A stretch of 64,000 bases of DNA. Origin: Roseibacillus sp. (GTDB lineage Bacteria > Verrucomicrobiota > Verrucomicrobiia > Verrucomicrobiales > Akkermansiaceae). Shown piece by piece: positions 916 to 9,751 of this stretch. Each line of letters begins with the position of its first letter. The stretch's first letter is position 1. The position numbers and the translations under genes are program-made. The stretch is taken from contig CBDEUM010000029.1 in the NCBI GenBank assembly GCA_965242925.1, positions 1-64,000 on the forward strand, in the 5' to 3' direction. The notes under the pieces are model-generated. The model worked only from the letters and a program-made list of their open reading frames with translations. It was not told where the DNA came from and did no database searches.

Positions 916-3900
916 ATGAGGGTTTTCAAGACAACACCGGCGCTTTTCACCGGGATTGTTCCAGCCGTCTTGTTCCTCATCCTCGTCGGTTGCAAACGTT
1001 CCGGGGAGGAAGAACTGCTCGAGACTGGGACGGAGGGCACGGCGGCCTTGATCCCACTGGCTGGGCGAGAGAAGGCGACGGCCCGGCTTCTCGATCCGGC
1101 AGAAGGTGGCTGGGAGATGGAGGTGTTCGCGGCTCAGGCCGAGGCGCAACTGGCTCGCCTGGCATCTTTGCTCTCCGGAGAGTCAAGTGCATGGAGCGAT
1201 CTTGGCGAACTGGTTGCAGAGGATGTCCTCACGGAGTTCGTGGATCCCGATGCCGGTGAGACCGTCTTCGAATCCGACGACGTTCGGGTGGCCCGCGGGG
1301 CTGAGAGTGCGACTGCCTCGCAAGCGAACTCTCGCAGCGGCCTTGCTTCCTGCGAAGACGCACTGAAGCGTCTGCAGGCCAATCTGCGCACGGAGCAGAA
1401 CAATCCGGTGGTCAAGGTTTCGTTGAAATTGATTGCAACAAATCCTCACGAAGATGGCACGGTCCGGACGACGATTCTCTATCATGCGAAGACTCGCTCC
1501 GCATCGGGACGCGACCAGATTCGAGCCCGCTGGAATTGCGATTGGTTGTGGGCGGAGGCATCGAGTCCACCGCTGATTCGACACTTCAAGGCAAGTGATT
1601 TCGAATCAGTTCAAAGTAAGAGCCCGCGTGTCTGGTTCTCCGATTGCACTCAAGCCGCCTTCGGGAAGAACCCTTCCTTCGGAAGTGAAATGGGGTTCGG
1701 AATGCACCATTGGCTCCAACGCGTTGGCCGGGTCCACGGGATGCTCTACTTTCAACGTCACGGAATCGCGGTAGGCGATGCCAATGGCGATGGGCTGGAT
1801 GACGTCTACGTCTGCCAGCCCGCAGGATTGCCCAACAAGCTCTTCCTTCATCAGCCGGACGGCTCGGCGCGTGATGCTTCCGCGGAGCTTGGGGTCGATT
1901 GGCTCGACAACACGGCGAGCGCGCTTTTTGTCGATCTGGACAACGACGGGGATCAGGATCTTGTCCTGGCCACCTTCGAAGGAACCCAGGTGCTGGAGAA
2001 TAACCCCGGAAGGGGTTTTCGTCCCGTTGCGAGGCTGGCTTCGGCGGACTACGATTTGCATGCGCTCTCTGCTGCGGACTACGACAACGACGGGGATCTT
2101 GATTTGTATGTCACAGTGGATTTTGCCCTGAACCCGAAGCGCCCCTTTCTCTATCACGATGCCAACGACGGCGGGCGCAATCAGCTCTTCCGCAACGACG
2201 GTGCCTGGAGATTCGTCGATGCAACCGAGGAGGCGGGACTTGGATTGAACAACGCGCGGCACAGCCTGGCGGCGGCCTGGGAGGACTACGACAACGATGG
2301 TGATCAGGACCTCTACATCGCAAACGACTATGGGAAGAACTGTCTCTACCGGAATGATGGCGGCAGGTTTTCCGAAATCGCAGAGAGAGCGGGAGCGGTC
2401 GATTACGGATCCGGCATGTCAGTGAGCTGGGCCGACTACGACCGGGACGGATGGATGGATCTCTATGTAGGCAATATGTTCTCCTCCGCGGGCAGTCGCA
2501 TCACGTCCCAGGAGAACTTCCTGACGAAAACCGGGCAGCCGGTCCGGTCGCTCTATCGCCGCTTTGTCCGCGGCAACAGCTGTTTTCGCAATGAGCAAGA
2601 TGGGACCTTTTCCGAAATGAGCGAAAAGAGCGGGGCCATGGTGGCGGGCTGGGCATGGAGTTCCGTTTTCACGGACCTCGATAACGATGGCTGGGAAGAT
2701 CTCTTTGTCGCCAACGGTTATATCACGACTCCGGATACCGGAGATTTGTGAAGTTTTTTCTGGCGACAGGTCGGGTCGTCAAGTGGGGTCTCGCTGGGAG
2801 GAGGTCTCGGAAGCGCAGCGGAGTCCTTTCTCGAGGTCGTCAAGCAGGGCCGCAGTTTCAGTGCGCGCGAAAGGCATCATTGCTTTCTCAATTTGCGGGA
2901 CGGATCGTTTTGCGATGTCTCGGCTGTTTCCGGACTGGATCTGCCCGACGACGGCCGCGGCGTTGCGCGGGCCGACTGGGATCGTGACGGGGATATCGAT
3001 TTCTTCGTTTCCAACCGCTCGGCGCCGCGGCTGCGGTTTTTCCGGAATGACCTCCCGGGGAGGAACGGCTTCATCGCCATCCGGCTCGAAGGAACGGTCG
3101 GCAATCGCGATGCGATCGGAGCCCGGGTCAACGTCCACCGGGGCGGGGAGGAGGATGTCCCCCTCGCCAAAACCCTTCGCGCCGGAGACGGATTCCTTTC
3201 CCAATCGTCCAAGTGGCTTCACTTCGGGCTGGGCGACCACCCCGGCCCGGTGACGGTGGAAGTGCGCTGGCCGGACGGATCCAGGGAGAGCTTTCCGGAT
3301 CTCGGCGGCAACGCATTCTATCGGCTCCGGGAGACAAGTGGCCGGGCCGAAGTCGTCCAGGTCGGGCGGGCCACACCCGCGAAACCTCTCTCGCCCGGTC
3401 CGGTCGTCCTGCCTGCTCCCTCCGGGTCTGCCAGGACTGTTTGTCTGAGCCGGATTCCACTCCCCGCCATCGATTCCCTGCCGCTCGACACCGGCAAACC
3501 GCTACTCGTGACCCTATGGGCGAGCTGGTGTGCGCCCTGTGTAACCGAACTGAAGGAGTTCGCAGAGAGGGAGGCCGAACTGCGCGCCACAGGTTGTGAC
3601 GTGATCGCCATTTCGGTCGACCCCATCACTCCGGGCGGGGACGAGGCGGCCGCTACACGGATTCTGCGCAAACTGGATTTCCCGTTTCGAAGGGGCTCCG
3701 CCAGCGAGGCAAGCATCGAAAAACTGCAGATGGTTCACGATCTCCAGTTCGATATTTTCACTGAGCTCCCTCTGCCCGCGAGTTTCCTGCTCGATCAGGA
3801 CGGCAAACTGGCCGTTTTCTACCGGGGCCGGCTTGAGGTTGCGACCCTTCTCCGCGATCTCCGGGAACTTGGTGCGGACGATGCGGCGCGCAGGAATTCC

Positions 3901-4476
3901 GCTGAGCTATTCGACGGGCAGTGGTTCGCGCCGCCGCGCCGCCTGAACTTTTTCCCGATCGGGTTGAAATTGTTGCAGCGTGGCTATGATCGGGAAGGGA
4001 TCGCCTACTACGAGCGTCACAAGTCATCATTTGCCGGACATCCGCAGTTCCAGAGGATGCTCGTTTTCCTGGGAGATGCCGCCAACCGCCTGGGCGACGG
4101 GAAGCGCGCTTTGATTGCTTATGAGGAGGCGATTGGCCGCTCGGCCGGCAAGGACAGCGCAGCCCTGCGGGGCGCGGCCTGGGTTCTGGCAGCCGATCCG
4201 AACTCGTCTCTTCGCGACGGCCACCGCGCAGTGGCCTATGCAGAGTCCGCCAGGAAACAAACGGGTGGAAAGGACGCAGCCGTCCTGGATGCCCTCGCCG
4301 CTGCATACGCCGAAATGGGAGACTTTTCTGCGGCAATCTCGAATGTAGAGGCCGCGCTCACGCTGCTGGGAGACAGAGGCGAGGCGCCTCGGGTGGAAAG
4401 CGTCAAGGCTCGCCGCAACCTCTATCTGAAGAAAAGGGCATTTCGGCGAGCCCCTCACGATGGCCACCTCGAATGA
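916..4476 (+). CDS. FG-GAP repeat / ASPIC-UnbV / TlpA-like redoxin / TPR lipoprotein with in-frame TGA at 2749-2751 (candidate selenoprotein, 1186 aa)
   Basis: ORFs 916-2751 and 2893-4476 are in the same frame and the 47 codons between them are open (SFFWRQV...GRSFSARERHHCFLN). Lipobox LVGC; repeated DxDxDGxxDL motifs; ASPIC/UnbV motif (NRDAIGARV...GDGFLSQS..LHFGLG); WASWCAPC redoxin motif; C-terminal TPR-like helices. Confidence 0.8.
2752..2788 (+). promoter_or_regulatory. Candidate bacterial SECIS element
   Basis: 9 nt after the TGA: stem TGGCGAC (2761-2767) / GTCGTCA (2775-2781), 7 bp with one G-U, and apical AGGTCGG. The E. coli fdhF SECIS apex is GCAGGUCUGC at a similar distance from its UGA. 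Confidence 0.65.
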
Positions 4477-4589
4477 GGGGGTCCGCCGAGGGGATTTTCA
4501 GGTCTCATGGATCGAGTGATCAGCTCCGTGCTTTACAGGGCGCAGGCGATTCCTCAGCGTGGCGATTGAACCAACCCGTTTCGCCTGCC

Positions 4590-5435
4590 ATGAATCTGAT
4601 TACCCGCCGCTCTGTCACCGCTCTGCTGCCGCTTTCTCTCCTCGCCGCCCTGGGCGTGGCAGTGAGTGCACCCGAGGCCTCGAAAACCGTCGCCAATGAC
4701 AGCAAGGAGGAGGGGGCGTCGCTCAAGGCGCTGCTGATCACCGGGGGATGTTGCCACGACTACAACCAGCAGAAGGTCATCATTCCCGGGGGCATCAGTC
4801 AGCGTGCCAAGGTGGACTGGACCATCGTCCACGAGGGGGGAACGTCCCGGGATCACAAGGTCAGCATCTATTCCAAGGAGGACTGGACCAGGGGATACGA
4901 CGTGATCGTGCACAACGAGTGCTTTGGTGGGGTGAAGGACGATGCTTTCGTGGAGGCTCTTGCCAAGGCGCACGAGACCACTCCGGCCGTGGTGCTGCAT
5001 TGCAGTATGCACAGTTACCGCGCGGCTCCAAAGGGGGCGGACGAGTGGCGCAGGTTCCTCGGGGTGACCTCGCGCAATCACGGGCGTCACGCCCCCATCA
5101 AGATGAAAAACCTCAAGCCCGATCATCCGGTCATGAAGGGCTTTCCCGCGGAGTGGACCACGCCCAAGGGCGAACTCTATCGGATTGAAAAGGTCTGGGA
5201 GACCGCCACCCCGCTGGTGGAGGGAACCTCCGGTCCAAAGGAGAATCACATCTGTGTATGGGTCAACGAATACGGGAAGAAGAAAAGCCGCGTGTTCGGG
5301 ACCACCATCGGCCATCACAATGAGACCATGCTGGAGCCCACCTATCTTGACCTCGTGACCCGCGGGTTGCTGTGGGCTACGGGGAAGCTGGGTGACGATG
5401 GCAAGCCGCTCCCGGGTTACGGGGTGAAGAACTGA
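4590..5435 (+). CDS. ThuA-like (class I glutamine amidotransferase-like) domain secreted protein
   Basis: Signal peptide from ATG 4590 (MNLITRRSVTALLPLSLLAALGVAVSA); motifs LLITGGCCHDY, HNECF, LHCSMHSYR, HPVMKG, ELY, VFGTTIGH. Confidence 0.8.
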   Translation: MNLITRRSVTALLPLSLLAALGVAVSAPEASKTVANDSKEEGASLKALLITGGCCHDYNQQKVIIPGGISQRAKVDWTIVHEGGTSRDHKVSIYSKEDWTRGYDVIVHNECFGGVKDDAFVEALAKAHETTPAVVLHCSMHSYRAAPKGADEWRRFLGVTSRNHGRHAPIKMKNLKPDHPVMKGFPAEWTTPKGELYRIEKVWETATPLVEGTSGPKENHICVWVNEYGKKKSRVFGTTIGHHNETMLEPTYLDLVTRGLLWATGKLGDDGKPLPGYGVKN

Positions 5436-6802: not shown

Positions 6803-9751
6803 ATGCGCTACGCCATCTTCTCAGACGTTCACGCCAACAGGCAGGCGTGGGAGGCCGTGCGGGAGGATATTATCAAACAGGAGGCTGACACCCTTGTGTG
6901 CCTCGGGGATGTGGTGGGCTATGGCCCGAGGCCTCTCGAAGTGCTGGCCGCGCTACGCGCTGTCACGGCCAACTTCGTTCTGGGAAACCACGATGCCGCT
7001 GCCTGCGGGCGTCTCGATCCGGCCATTTTCAACGAGCGGGCGCGCACCGTGATTGAGTGGACCCGCCAGCAACTTGATGAGGAAGCCCTGCAGTTTCTCA
7101 TGCAGGTTCCGCTCCAGATGGACGGGCAGGATTTGTGTTTCGTGCACGCCGAGATCGTGGAACCGGGTGAGTTCGGTTACGTCGAAGGGATCTCTGCGGC
7201 TGAAGTGAACCTGAAGGCAATGACGGGTTCACTGGGATTCATCGGCCACACCCACCTGCCTCTCGCTTACACCATGCCGGTGCGGGGCGGTCCGGTGAAG
7301 CAACTGCCTCCACACGATTTCCCGGTGGAGCGCGGACAGCGATATATCATCAACGTGGGCTCGGTGGGTGAACCCCGGACCACGGATGTGCGGGCCAGCT
7401 ATGTCATCTACGATGATGTGGCGGGCACGGTTTCCTACCGCAGGGTGGCCTTCGACGTGGAGGCCTACAAGGCGGACCTGGCCGAGAGCGATCTCGATAT
7501 CCTGCCTTATTTCGTGCAGGTGGTTGATGCCGGCAAGGTGGCGGGCGCGCCTCAGCCTGCGGCCGCGCCCCAGCTGGCTCTGGCCCAGCTTCCCAAGGTG
7601 GCCGAGGGGGTGGCCGGTGGTCACGGCCGCCTGGTGGTGGGAAGGCCTAACCCGGGAGCCCGCCCGCCCGGGGTTGCCCCGATAACGGTCTCGCGTTCAC
7701 GTTCCAGTGCGCCCTGGGTGATTGGAATCGCAGCCCTGGTGACCATCCTGCTCGTTGTCATTGCGATCGCGGTGATGCAGGATGGCCCTGGCAAGGCCGT
7801 CATATCCGCGTCAGTAGCGAGGACCACCGAGAACGAGAAGGGGCGTCGCAGCCCGGGCTCGCCCGGAGCAGCTGACCAGGCTGAGGCCGGGGGCCCCATT
7901 CGCGACCTGGTGGTTCGGCGGTTCGGGAAAAATTTCCAGAGCCTGGCCGAACTGCGTAGCGCAGGGGGCGAAGAGCATACCGAGGAAAAGGTTGGCGACG
8001 GCCTGCTCAATCTCGTGCATGGAGGACAGGAAGCCTGCGGACTGGTATGGGAGGGCTACCTGCGGGTTCCTGAGAAGGGCTTCTATGAATTCACGCTCCA
8101 AGCCTCCTCCGGTGCGGCCCTTGTGATCTACGAAGAGGAGCAGGTGCTCTCCGAGTCCGGGTCTCTTGCCTCGGCACGCGTCCTTTTGCGTCGTGGACAT
8201 GCGCCTGTCCGGGTGGAGTACTTCCAGCGGGAGGGAGAGTCCGGGCCTGCCCTGACCCTTCACTGGTCCGGTCCAGGGCTGGATGGAAAGCTCTCGCTGG
8301 TGAGGAGGGGTGTCAGCAAGGGCGTGGCGATTGCCAGGAACGATTCTCCGGCACCAGACCCGGTTGAGCCTGAGCCCGCCCCTGAGCCGGTGGCGGGGCG
8401 GGAAGCGCCGGAGAAGATCTCACAGGGGCTGTTCGCTTACTGGTCCTTTAACCGGCGGGAGCCCAAGGCGAATTCGCGATTCACCAGGACCAGTCGCGGA
8501 GTTGAGGAGAAGCTTATCATGAAAGGCCAGCCCCTGCGCTACCGCCGGCCGGCCGCTGATCCCGGGAGTCGCGGGTGGACCAGATCCGGGTTCGATGATT
8601 CGGTCGATTGGCTCGATGGGAAAAATGGGGTCGGCTACGAGGACGACGCTGGCGATTTCAAGGACCTTCTCCACACCAGGATCGAGACAGCCAAGGGGAA
8701 GCATCCGCACAGTCTCTACCTGCGGATCCCGTTCGAGGTGAAGAACCCCGACGACTATCAGGGGCTGGCACTCTTCATGCAGTACGACGATGGATTCGAG
8801 GTCTCCCTGAATGGATCAGTGGTGGGCAGCCGGAACGCACCCTTTCCCCTCCTATGGAACTCCGGGGCCGAAAAGAAGAGGAACGACGGGGACGCCGTCA
8901 AGCCCGAGGCCGTGAAGCTCGGGACCCGCCGGATCCAGTCGCTGGTCCCGGGCACCAACGTGCTGGCCGTCCATGCCCTCAATGACGGGGAGCAGAGCAA
9001 ACCCAATGCAACAAATACCGGCTGCACCAGCAGTGACATGCTGATCCTGGCTGAACTCGTTGGCCTGCGGAAAGATGGTGAGCTGCCCGGGGAGGATGGA
9101 CCCGGAAAACCGAACAGGCACGACCGCGTGATCGAGGAGGCCATGATCAAGGGCCAGGTGAGCGCGGCGCCCGGAAAATTTGGAGAGGCCTTCGATTTCC
9201 AGGGAGGCAGCCTGGACATCGGGAGCAAGGACGAGTTCGCAATTGCGGATCAGTCCTGCACCGTCAGCCTCTGGTTCACCCGCAATCCCGGTTCCGCCGA
9301 TGGCCAGGCCCGCCGGCTCATTTCGGCGGGGGCAGGCTCAGACCAGAAGGCCGGATGGGCAATATGGATCCAGAAGGATGGCAGTGGTCTCACCTTTCGG
9401 GTGGGTGATGGCAATACGGCTTCTGACCTTACGGCCAAGAAGGACAGCCTCGTGAACGGGGAGTGGCACCACGTGGCGGTTACGGTGGAACGTGAGAGCA
9501 GGCAGCTACACCTCTTCCTCGACGGGGTGCTCGCGGGCGAGGCCCTCAAGGTCGATCTCCTGGCAGGCGGGACCATCGGATCTCATTCAGGACTCTGCAT
9601 CGGGCGCAACTCCGACGACCAGCAGCACCATCCTGGCAAGATCGACGATGTGGCCCTGTGGCACCGGGCCCTGCTGCCTGAGGAGATAGAAAAGATCTTC
9701 CAGTCCGGGGAAGCAGCGGGCGATTTATTTGATGCCGAGCCGGCGGAGTAG
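6803..9751 (+). CDS. Metallophosphoesterase - TM - PA14 - jelly-roll - LamG multidomain membrane protein
   Basis: Calcineurin-like motifs SDVH, LGDVVGYG, GNHD, GHTH, NVGSVGEPR. One hydrophobic helix WVIGIAALVTILLVVIAIAVM. PA14-like WEGYLRVPEKGFYEF...VEYFQREG. LamG-like TVSLWF...WHHVAVT...LFLDG...IDDVALWHRAL. Confidence 0.85.
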   Translation: MRYAIFSDVHANRQAWEAVREDIIKQEADTLVCLGDVVGYGPRPLEVLAALRAVTANFVLGNHDAAACGRLDPAIFNERARTVIEWTRQQLDEEALQFLMQVPLQMDGQDLCFVHAEIVEPGEFGYVEGISAAEVNLKAMTGSLGFIGHTHLPLAYTMPVRGGPVKQLPPHDFPVERGQRYIINVGSVGEPRTTDVRASYVIYDDVAGTVSYRRVAFDVEAYKADLAESDLDILPYFVQVVDAGKVAGAPQPAAAPQLALAQLPKVAEGVAGGHGRLVVGRPNPGARPPGVAPITVSRSRSSAPWVIGIAALVTILLVVIAIAVMQDGPGKAVISASVARTTENEKGRRSPGSPGAADQAEAGGPIRDLVVRRFGKNFQSLAELRSAGGEEHTEEKVGDGLLNLVHGGQEACGLVWEGYLRVPEKGFYEFTLQASSGAALVIYEEEQVLSESGSLASARVLLRRGHAPVRVEYFQREGESGPALTLHWSGPGLDGKLSLVRRGVSKGVAIARNDSPAPDPVEPEPAPEPVAGREAPEKISQGLFAYWSFNRREPKANSRFTRTSRGVEEKLIMKGQPLRYRRPAADPGSRGWTRSGFDDSVDWLDGKNGVGYEDDAGDFKDLLHTRIETAKGKHPHSLYLRIPFEVKNPDDYQGLALFMQYDDGFEVSLNGSVVGSRNAPFPLLWNSGAEKKRNDGDAVKPEAVKLGTRRIQSLVPGTNVLAVHALNDGEQSKPNATNTGCTSSDMLILAELVGLRKDGELPGEDGPGKPNRHDRVIEEAMIKGQVSAAPGKFGEAFDFQGGSLDIGSKDEFAIADQSCTVSLWFTRNPGSADGQARRLISAGAGSDQKAGWAIWIQKDGSGLTFRVGDGNTASDLTAKKDSLVNGEWHHVAVTVERESRQLHLFLDGVLAGEALKVDLLAGGTIGSHSGLCIGRNSDDQQHHPGKIDDVALWHRALLPEEIEKIFQSGEAAGDLFDAEPAE

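Follow-up and report, generated by a model that had tools for sequence, protein, structure and literature searches.

A predicted exported lipoprotein family with a CRTAC1-like propeller, read through an in-frame UGA as a probable selenoprotein in Roseibacillus sp. and other bacteria

Introduction

Four genes in Table S9 of Kim et al. (2016, PLoS One 11:e0151883, PMC4807772) are given there as selenoprotein candidates, and they have the same make-up as the gene reported here, which lies at positions 916-4476 of a 64,000-nucleotide stretch of DNA from Roseibacillus sp. (GenBank assembly GCA_965242925.1, contig CBDEUM010000029.1, positions 1 to 64,000 of the forward strand; this whole stretch is called the window below) and appears to be read through an in-frame TGA. 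In that table each candidate consists of two adjacent IMG genes that an in-frame UGA separates, a selenocysteine insertion sequence (SECIS) element was predicted with bSECISearch for three of the four, and the closest hit without selenocysteine (Sec) is acidobacterial and has G at the aligned residue (PMC4807772). The main-text selenoprotein section of that paper does not discuss the four candidates. Our gene shares with them the domain make-up and the split gene, and a G at the site fits the variable column that we observed, a likeness judged by description only. Added here are the conservation of the TGA in four phyla, the expansion into paralogues, the covariation of a hairpin, the position of Sec in the fold, and the link of Sec to a CxxC or U-x-C motif. 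A first-pass annotation of the window, made from the letters alone, did not know this as a characterised selenoprotein family, which stands as regards characterisation, although the Table S9 entries had already been put forward as candidates (PMC4807772). The family is real, large, exported and mis-annotated, and it is barely documented rather than unknown.

A literature search returned no relevant pairing of selenoprotein with FG-GAP or of selenocysteine with ASPIC. FG-GAP, VCBS, ASPIC and CRTAC1 are not named in the main texts of PMC13188914, PMC12013277, PMC13326102, PMC9312934, PMC2398784 and PMC5029168 (CRTAC1 was not searched in the two older ones), which comprise two reviews, deep-Sep, BSepDB, the Global Ocean Sampling (GOS) survey and a 2016 comparative study. 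The family names are also absent from four deep-Sep supplements (PMC12013277), in a search that did not reach the BSepDB family table, PMC12013261 or PMC9879109 (Haft and co-workers).

Among described proteins, CRTAC1/ASPIC-UnbV (9etn_A) resembles the product of our gene in having an FG-GAP propeller with UnbV_ASPIC (template modelling (TM) score 0.70), but the bacterial protein is a lipoprotein with thioredoxin-fold and tetratricopeptide repeat (TPR) parts and Sec, and the identity is 17%. Animal CRTAC1 has a C-terminal epidermal growth factor (EGF)-like domain; the Pfam scan of our protein contained no EGF-like family, and the thioredoxin-fold and TPR parts occupy that place. Like the TlpA/ResA/DsbE oxidoreductases, the protein has a thioredoxin fold that contains W-C-x-P-C, and it is predicted to lie outside the cytoplasm. 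It differs from the ResA-like selenoproteins (NCBIfam NF041054, WAxxUGC) in that its thioredoxin-fold site keeps two Cys and its Sec belongs to a different domain, about 260 residues upstream. At the RNA level the locus resembles the E. coli fdhF-type genes, which carry the SECIS inside the open reading frame (ORF): the UGA is followed at 16-17 nucleotides (nt) by a small loop beginning G-G-U on a short G+C-rich stem, and the apical loop of fdhF is GGUC. In contrast to those genes, the hairpin here is minimal (6-7 bp) and has no Rfam match, and the protein is neither a formate dehydrogenase nor a member of any family in the catalogues searched. As for selenoprotein genes read by SelB, tRNA-Sec, selB and selD are found in this genome.

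Results

One gene across an in-frame TGA

Positions 916-4476 form one gene in which the TGA at 2749-2751 is very probably decoded as selenocysteine. The ORF list gives two ORFs on the + strand that share one frame, 916-2751 (ATG, 611 amino acids) and 2893-4476 (TTG, 527 amino acids). Translation of 916-4476 with TGA as U gave a single frame of 1186 residues (611 + 1 + 574), with U612 as the sole internal TGA. The first-pass annotation had joined the two ORFs into one 1186-residue protein with 47 open codons between the TGA and the TTG, and its coordinates proved exact, the 47 codons being 2752-2892. The TGA is preceded by GGA GAT TTG (G-D-L) and stands in the motif D-L-U-S-F-F-W-R-Q-V. The features of the gene are as follows.

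916..4476, + strand: coding sequence of 1186 codons plus stop, called as two ORFs (ORF list, translation)
916..993, + strand: signal peptide with lipobox (L-V-G-C26), predicted exported lipoprotein (read by eye from the translation)
1753..3105, + strand: CRTAC1-like FG-GAP beta-propeller, with Sec in a predicted two-helix insertion between blades (Pfam FG-GAP_3 7e-43, FG-GAP 7.4e-22; model)
2749..2751, + strand: UGA probably read as selenocysteine, U612 (translation and column conservation)
2761..2781, + strand: SECIS-like hairpin, 7-bp stem 2761-2767/2775-2781, loop A-G-G-U-C-G-G at 2768-2774
3112..3315, + strand: UnbV_ASPIC domain (Pfam PF07593, 2.6e-16, residues 733-800)
3490..3813, + strand: TlpA/ResA-like thioredoxin-fold domain (Pfam AhpC-TSA 1e-11, Redoxin 2.6e-08, residues 859-966)
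3529..3540, + strand: C-A-P-C (C872, C875), the CxxC site of the thioredoxin-fold domain, 259 residues behind Sec
4051..4341, + strand: TPR-like C-terminal region, weak (residues 1046-1142; TPR_8 0.0049, TPR_15 0.0099, both under gathering scores)
4474..4476, + strand: true stop TGA, overlapping the ATG of the next ORF, 4473-5435 (ORF list, translation)

The Pfam scores of the FG-GAP propeller and of the UnbV_ASPIC domain that follows it exceed the gathering scores, and the part holding CAPC scored as a thioredoxin fold with both AhpC-TSA (45.3 bits, cut-off 26) and Redoxin (34.2 bits, cut-off 26.6). This agrees with the domain order proposed before (FG-GAP, ASPIC-UnbV, redoxin, TPR), the TPR part being weak. 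The NCBIfam scores of 34.9 (TlpA), 33.1 (ResA) and 18.7 bits are far under the cut-offs of 230, 170 and 300, and NCBIfam has no model covering the family. By these scores the thioredoxin-fold part is a domain related to TlpA/ResA and not an orthologue. Lipobox-like ends (...G/A/S-C) also occur in the paralogues of the same genome whose N-terminus was printed. The product is thus predicted to be an exported lipoprotein of 1186 residues, with a CRTAC1-like propeller, UnbV/ASPIC, a TlpA-like CAPC domain and a TPR tail.

Conservation of the TGA and of the codons behind it

We examined what database matches to the N-terminal ORF look like. The best 120 matches (336-1070 amino acids) end at D-L in 119 cases and at D-F in one, the downstream motif is in none of them, and they are named 'VCBS repeat-containing', 'FG-GAP-like repeat-containing' or 'hypothetical'. 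The expectation that annotation pipelines would report two genes was therefore borne out; the family is routinely cut in two in the databases.

The TGA is not an assembly error, because contigs from two other DNA runs (X2 record 7; X4 records 14 and 15) cover 2749-2751 with no differing letter listed. In the genome itself tblastn found 13 loci with TGA at the U612 column, with the motif D-L-U-S-x-x-W-R-x-V, including paralogues that are just 30-35% identical. A six-frame search of 61 related genomes with query residues 451-800 matched in 30 of them, with up to 20 family matches per relative genome. All 42 motif-holding high-scoring segment pairs from this genome and from loci L012-L040 of relatives carry TGA, and the remaining eight pairs are distant FG-GAP proteins without the motif. 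Among the roughly 150 of 244 matches that were listed, all but one hold exactly one TGA, and the exception covers only the part behind the site. A pattern scan with one genome per species gave 77 named loci. The column reads TGA in 18 of them and a sense codon (N, S, A, G, E or D) in 17; a nineteenth TGA locus, L069, emerged after correction of an alignment offset. The 19 loci belong to Verrucomicrobiota (10), Planctomycetota (5), Acidobacteriota (3) and Gemmatimonadota (1).

Comparison with orthologues gave ratios of nonsynonymous to synonymous substitution (dN/dS) of 0.15-0.35 for the whole downstream part, 0-0.26 for the 47 codons from the TGA to the first possible start, and 0.04-0.23 for 400 codons upstream, values which indicate that the codons behind the TGA are under purifying selection. 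Within the 47-codon segment lies S-F-F-W-R-Q-V-V, the best conserved stretch of all family members. It is unbroken in unsplit homologues, as the first-pass annotation had stated for the longer segment DLxSFFWRQV...SFSxRER. In 9 of 120 unsplit homologues, the closest ones included, the Sec column holds Cys; most other Sec-less homologues have S, N, D, A, E, G, H or Q there. Tabulating the codon at the column, as had been proposed, thus showed a conserved TGA that interchanges with Cys, in a column that also admits these other residues.

A SECIS-like hairpin behind the TGA

In the published model of the bacterial SECIS, the loop has 3-9 nt with G in its first two positions, the spacing is 16-37 nt and the energy is at most -7.5 kcal/mol (PMC13188914). 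The hairpin of the window agrees on all four counts: its 7-bp stem starts after nine bases behind the UGA, the loop of 7 nt has G at position 2, UGA and loop are 16 nt apart, and it folds at -8.0 kcal/mol. In most paralogues the stem has 6 bp and the loop, G-G-U-C-G, comes 17 nt behind the UGA; across the family the hairpin starts 9-11 nt after the UGA, with a stem of 6-7 bp and a GGUC loop. At the threshold of -7.5, 27 of 56 unique Sec members pass, compared with 2 of 23 sense-codon relatives. By our own reading of the printed list, 19 further Sec members have the same 6-bp hairpin at -7.3 or -7.4 because of a G-U pair.

Because the stem overlaps conserved codons, we compared silent sites, using the members with the peptide x-x-x-W-R-Q-V-V (Sec, n = 38; sense codon, n = 11). 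The first Val is GTC in 36/38 Sec members versus 3/11 sense-codon members, and the second is GTG in 36/38 versus 7/11; GTG accounts for just 15 of the 73 Val codons across the window gene. The codon after the second Val ends in G in 37/38 Sec members and, from the printed codon table, in 5/11 of the others. The following codon starts with C in 36/38 Sec members despite a varying amino acid (R, Q, H, P, S, L), and with A in 9/11 sense-codon members. In an ungapped alignment of 44 Sec members, 86.8% of the cells were paired versus 20-64% with slid partners, and one stem pair covaries (GU 22, AU 10, GC 3, UA 2, CG 1). These comparisons indicate that the hairpin is kept through synonymous and compensatory changes, and that its covariation, as judged from the alignment, is real but modest. 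Furthermore, a hairpin with the same GCA-GGUC-UGC top lies 32 nt behind the in-frame UGA of the genome's own selD. In two seawater metagenome runs contig depth peaks at 2737-2778 (53.9 and 21.1, versus about 10 and 3-4 nearby), a peak also given at 2742-2775, and many otherwise unlike contigs match just about 2737-2778, that is, the UGA and the hairpin.

Several results weaken the case from the hairpin. Shuffles matched the observed values in 5/500 and 9/500 cases, so that the controls are only moderately exceeded, the covariation comes mostly from one pair, and the stem encodes a conserved peptide. At E <= 10, the only two matches from an Rfam scan of 2600-3000 are at chance level and neither is to a SECIS family, and the whole 91-nt stretch folds no better than shuffles (z 0.78). 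Only the small hairpin, not the 91-nt stretch, matters.

Position 2766, the third base of an Arg codon and a stem position, varies between A and G in metagenome contigs. We also scanned the genome for TGA followed by a GGUC hairpin with 100 open codons on each side. The scan returned 23 of 2221 TGA sites, 11 of them at loci of the family (at the window's own site it reported a different hairpin), compared with 4 of 719 TAG and 1 of 557 TAA control sites. We rejected it as a count of the selenoproteome because, without the family, the TGA rate equals the TAG rate, which makes the scan too noisy. Outside the window, on contig C22 near 63567 (+ strand), it picked up an in-frame TGA (N-C-S-R-A-*-H-A-P) with a GGUC-loop hairpin 18 nt behind and 100 open codons on each side, which may be a further selenoprotein or scan noise.

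Selenocysteine machinery in this and related genomes

The assembly has 42 contigs and is 89.87% complete. It contains tRNA-SeC, to which the filtered aragorn output gives the anticodon TCA, selB (287.5 bits, over the cut-off) and selD (366.6 bits). The selD gene (contig C14, L001:1531-1533) itself encodes a selenoprotein, with S-S-C-A-G-U-A-S-K-L. Of the sel genes called for by the first-pass annotation, selB, selD and tRNA-Sec were thus recovered, whereas selA was not.

In related genomes, where the family is present (30 genomes), selA was found in 28 and not in two, namely this genome and one that is 70% complete; where it is absent (31 genomes), selA was found in 8 and not in 23. The five genomes behind named TGA loci that were compared all have selA. 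Except for these two incomplete assemblies, then, the TGA form was confined to selA-positive genomes, which is the restriction predicted for a Sec codon.

Two observations tell the other way. With Pfam and NCBIfam models, selA was not found in this 89.87%-complete genome; as 18 of 19 other genomes of the genus have it, we regard the miss as probably an assembly gap. Moreover, selA is present in 3 of 5 genomes behind sense-codon loci, and therefore Sec-capable bacteria can also hold sense-codon forms.

Taken together, the conserved TGA column, its interchange with Cys, the hairpin and the machinery point to selenocysteine at residue 612, as the first-pass annotation had proposed. We hold with high confidence that the recoding is canonical; short of protein chemistry, it is supported as far as sequence analysis permits. 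By the ordinary bacterial route, the mRNA hairpin at 2761-2781 just behind the UGA would recruit SelB and Sec-tRNA(Sec), which would place Sec at 2749-2751.

Position of Sec612 in the predicted fold

An AlphaFold model of residues 280-830 (model numbering is the protein residue minus 279) shows one continuous fold across the TGA, with a predicted local distance difference test score (pLDDT) of 92.4 and a predicted TM score (pTM) of 0.93. U612, model residue 333, is the first residue of a helix (333-343) right behind a strand (328-331), and a second helix (351-364) precedes the next blade. The top structural match of the model was murine CRTAC1 (9etn_A; E 5.9e-25, TM 0.70, 17% identity), followed by integrin and lectin propellers at about 1e-8. 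A sequence search of the PDB gave 9etn_A at 1.4e-10 and, among TlpA/ResA proteins, TlpA 1jfu_A at 9.8e-07. In the model, then, Sec612 begins the first helix of a two-helix insertion that lies between CRTAC1-like propeller blades. A helix N-terminus behind a strand is the typical placement of a redox-active Cys or Sec. The earlier suggestion of a Sec in a propeller insertion loop outside the thioredoxin fold was right about the fold, but the modelled surroundings are helical rather than a plain loop.

Association of Sec with thiols and a possible relay

We next asked which thiols accompany Sec in the family. Among 57 unique Sec members, 49 are long forms (>=300 residues behind Sec), and 48 of these have a CxxC 250-290 residues behind Sec, in the thioredoxin-fold domain; a Cys at +2 occurs in no long form. 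Five complete short forms end after UnbV_ASPIC, and four of them have U-S-C or U-T-C; a sixth short locus, on contig C37, is a truncated copy. In 154 long family rows, Sec occurs with CxxC in 47 and without it in 1, whereas non-Sec forms have CxxC in 20 and lack it in 86. These data suggest that the selenol depends on a thiol to resolve it, be it the Cys in cis at +2 or one from the fused domain. A Cys at about 655/656 was considered as a strict partner and dropped: although enriched (76% of Sec forms and 87% of Cys forms, against 22% of others), it is lacking from several Sec members, and several non-Sec members have it.

A selenol/thiol redox relay in the exported lipoprotein is what we tentatively propose, at a likelihood that falls a little short of even. 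Sec612, at the helix tip between propeller blades, would be an extracytoplasmic nucleophile with redox activity. Its selenol would be restored in every cycle by the CxxC that the fused domain carries, a part that would fall, in short members without the thioredoxin-fold domain, to the cysteine two residues on (U-x-C). More speculatively, and with the balance leaning somewhat against it, Sec612 could be the nucleophile with which a hitherto unrecognised kind of extracytoplasmic selenoenzyme carries out catalysis, recycled by the built-in TlpA-like CxxC or a vicinal Cys, with the paralogues presumably serving different substrates. That a WCAPC domain in the same chain might recycle Sec had been suggested from the window alone; the two co-occur in nearly all long Sec forms, and it is from this co-occurrence that the recycling is proposed.

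A number of observations detract from a relay. The pairing of Sec with Cys at the column is partial, and the other residues listed above are unusual at the place of a catalytic residue. One long Sec form has CxxS instead of CxxC, one short form (L039) has neither U-x-C nor the thioredoxin-fold domain, and CxxC is present in just 4 of 8 Cys forms. On supported branches of the family tree there are only 2 (Sec) or 5 (Sec or Cys) contrasts between Sec and CxxC, all in one direction (p 0.25-0.5); with so few independent contrasts, the link may reflect shared descent.

In a sister FG-GAP group from Acidobacteriota (L080, L103, L109, L114 and L091), the equivalent place holds the motif x-[ST]-C-x-W-K-G-x-P-V-x-C, with Cys at +2 and +11 and no TGA. 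This Cys pair may form a disulfide where the Sec family has the helix.

Alternative readings of the locus

Sec could also be inserted at residue 612 and yet work outside a thiol/selenol relay, by binding a metal or cofactor or by tying full-length synthesis to selenium supply, with a 611-residue product otherwise. We judge this unlikely, although not strongly so. It would account for a column that is not Cys in most Sec-less homologues, for a Sec-CxxC association that may follow shared descent, and for the short form L039, and it would suit a propeller with many calcium sites of the Dx[DN]xDG type (a motif class named in PMC3123361). It leaves unexplained why CxxC is kept in 48/49 long Sec forms versus 20/106 non-Sec forms and why the short forms mostly have U-x-C. 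Nor does it predict the modelled position at a helix N-terminus behind a strand, which is typical of a redox-active Cys or Sec.

It seems to us very improbable that a near-cognate or suppressor tRNA instead inserts one of the ordinary residues Trp, Cys, Gly or Arg at the UGA and that the hairpin does no more than slow the ribosome or release factor 2. The failure to find selA in this assembly would fit such readthrough, as would a homologue column that tolerates many residues, including W, G and R, which are one base from TGA. However, the TGA form is confined to selA-positive genomes save the two incomplete assemblies, tRNA-Sec and selB are present, and the hairpin fits the SECIS model and matches at its top that of the genome's own Sec-containing selD. 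A sense codon would serve as well and cost nothing, and still 57 unique members retain the TGA.

A decoding of the TGA as selenocysteine within one gene was also compared with readings in which there is no full-length product. We reject two real genes, a pseudogene and an error alike because of the purifying selection, the contiguous conserved peptide and the one confident fold across the site. Two genes, a propeller protein ending at the TGA and a downstream protein with its own start, are what ORF callers and public databases annotate. This arrangement is extremely unlikely: no start codon occurs for 47 codons, which hold the family's most conserved peptide under purifying selection, the frame is always continuous and the unsplit homologues are contiguous, and the TGA falls inside one confidently modelled propeller domain.

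For a pseudogene, a recent nonsense mutation or a sequencing error, one might cite that TGC or TGT becomes TGA in a single step, that the closest unsplit homologues have Cys, and that the C37 copy in this genome does stop 53 codons behind the site. The conservation of the TGA refutes this reading and leaves it next to no probability, as every family member examined in four phyla has the same codon, the other assemblies have the same base, selection acts behind the TGA, and all of the best 120 N-terminal ORF matches end at the same D-L or D-F. A reassigned code, with every TGA read as an amino acid, has nothing beyond the open frame in its favour and is just as negligible. It is refuted by the true stops, which are TGA, TAG or TAA in complete family genes that each contain a single internal TGA, and TGA in the present gene as well (an ordinary stop elsewhere, as first noted from the window), and by the filtered aragorn output, where the TCA anticodon named belongs to tRNA-SeC.

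Evolution, paralogues and occurrence

A FastTree phylogeny of 162 family members (residues 451-800) has a clade of 66 rows without Sec, mostly from Terriglobia-type Acidobacteriota, a mixed clade of 89 rows (45 Sec, 7 Cys, 37 other), and a divergent basal group of 7 rows, all Sec after the correction of L069. Sec needs 11 changes on the tree, just 2 of which are forced by well-supported branches. Sec forms adjoin, among others, forms with C, S, W, R or G, all of them residues that a single base change can produce from TGA. We infer that Sec probably dates from early in the family's history, that it has been lost several times, and that the column drifted once Sec was gone.

For ten other loci of the same genome, Pfam found AhpC-TSA in 4, a CxxC could be seen by eye in 3 more and a CxxS in 1, and 2 stop after UnbV_ASPIC. 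The paralogues score strongly for TPR. Compared over orthologous paralogues, the genome is about 75% identical in DNA to loci of Roseibacillus metagenome-assembled genomes, which would make it a marine verrucomicrobium near that genus.

Two pairs of near-identical family copies were seen in the genome, L123 (C37:732-2789) with L120 (C28:2600-6451), and L122 (C12:49681-52248) with L128 (C17:48941-50974). The C37 copy has a stop 53 codons past the Sec codon and an N-terminus in common with the C28 copy. Such pairs may be recent duplicates, a decaying copy or assembly duplication.

The selenium use of marine Verrucomicrobiota and Planctomycetota is undercounted, because one genome has 13 loci and relatives have up to 20 matches. 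If the reading as selenoproteins is true, few known selenoproteomes would owe as many members to one family as those of these bacteria, with a dozen or more paralogues per genome. As a design for a selenoprotein this would be unusual, with the Sec placed in an exported propeller rather than in the thioredoxin fold and linked to a CxxC domain in the same chain; it offers a testable clue to the role of CRTAC1-like proteins. It would also give a first biochemical handle on the CRTAC1/ASPIC fold, for which we found no biochemical function, although no specific search was made.

The stretch is found in seawater and other marine metagenome runs of at least 11 studies, with half or more of its words. 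RNA runs held small word shares only; one RNA-library contig (X17 record 3, from a relative, with 16 differences) bridges the TGA, which does not show transcription.

Neighbouring genes

Nothing about the gene could be learned from its neighbours in the window, among which are a ThuA-like ORF, a protein with PDZ, one with metallophosphoesterase/PA14/LamG parts and a pyrroloquinoline quinone (PQQ)-type propeller. The ATG of the ThuA-like ORF (4473-5435) overlaps the TGA stop of the gene (ATGA), which suggests translational coupling or an operon of the two. The ORF at 6803-9751 encodes 982 amino acids with metallophosphoesterase, PA14 and LamG/pentraxin-like domains, and is probably a secreted hydrolase with carbohydrate-binding parts.

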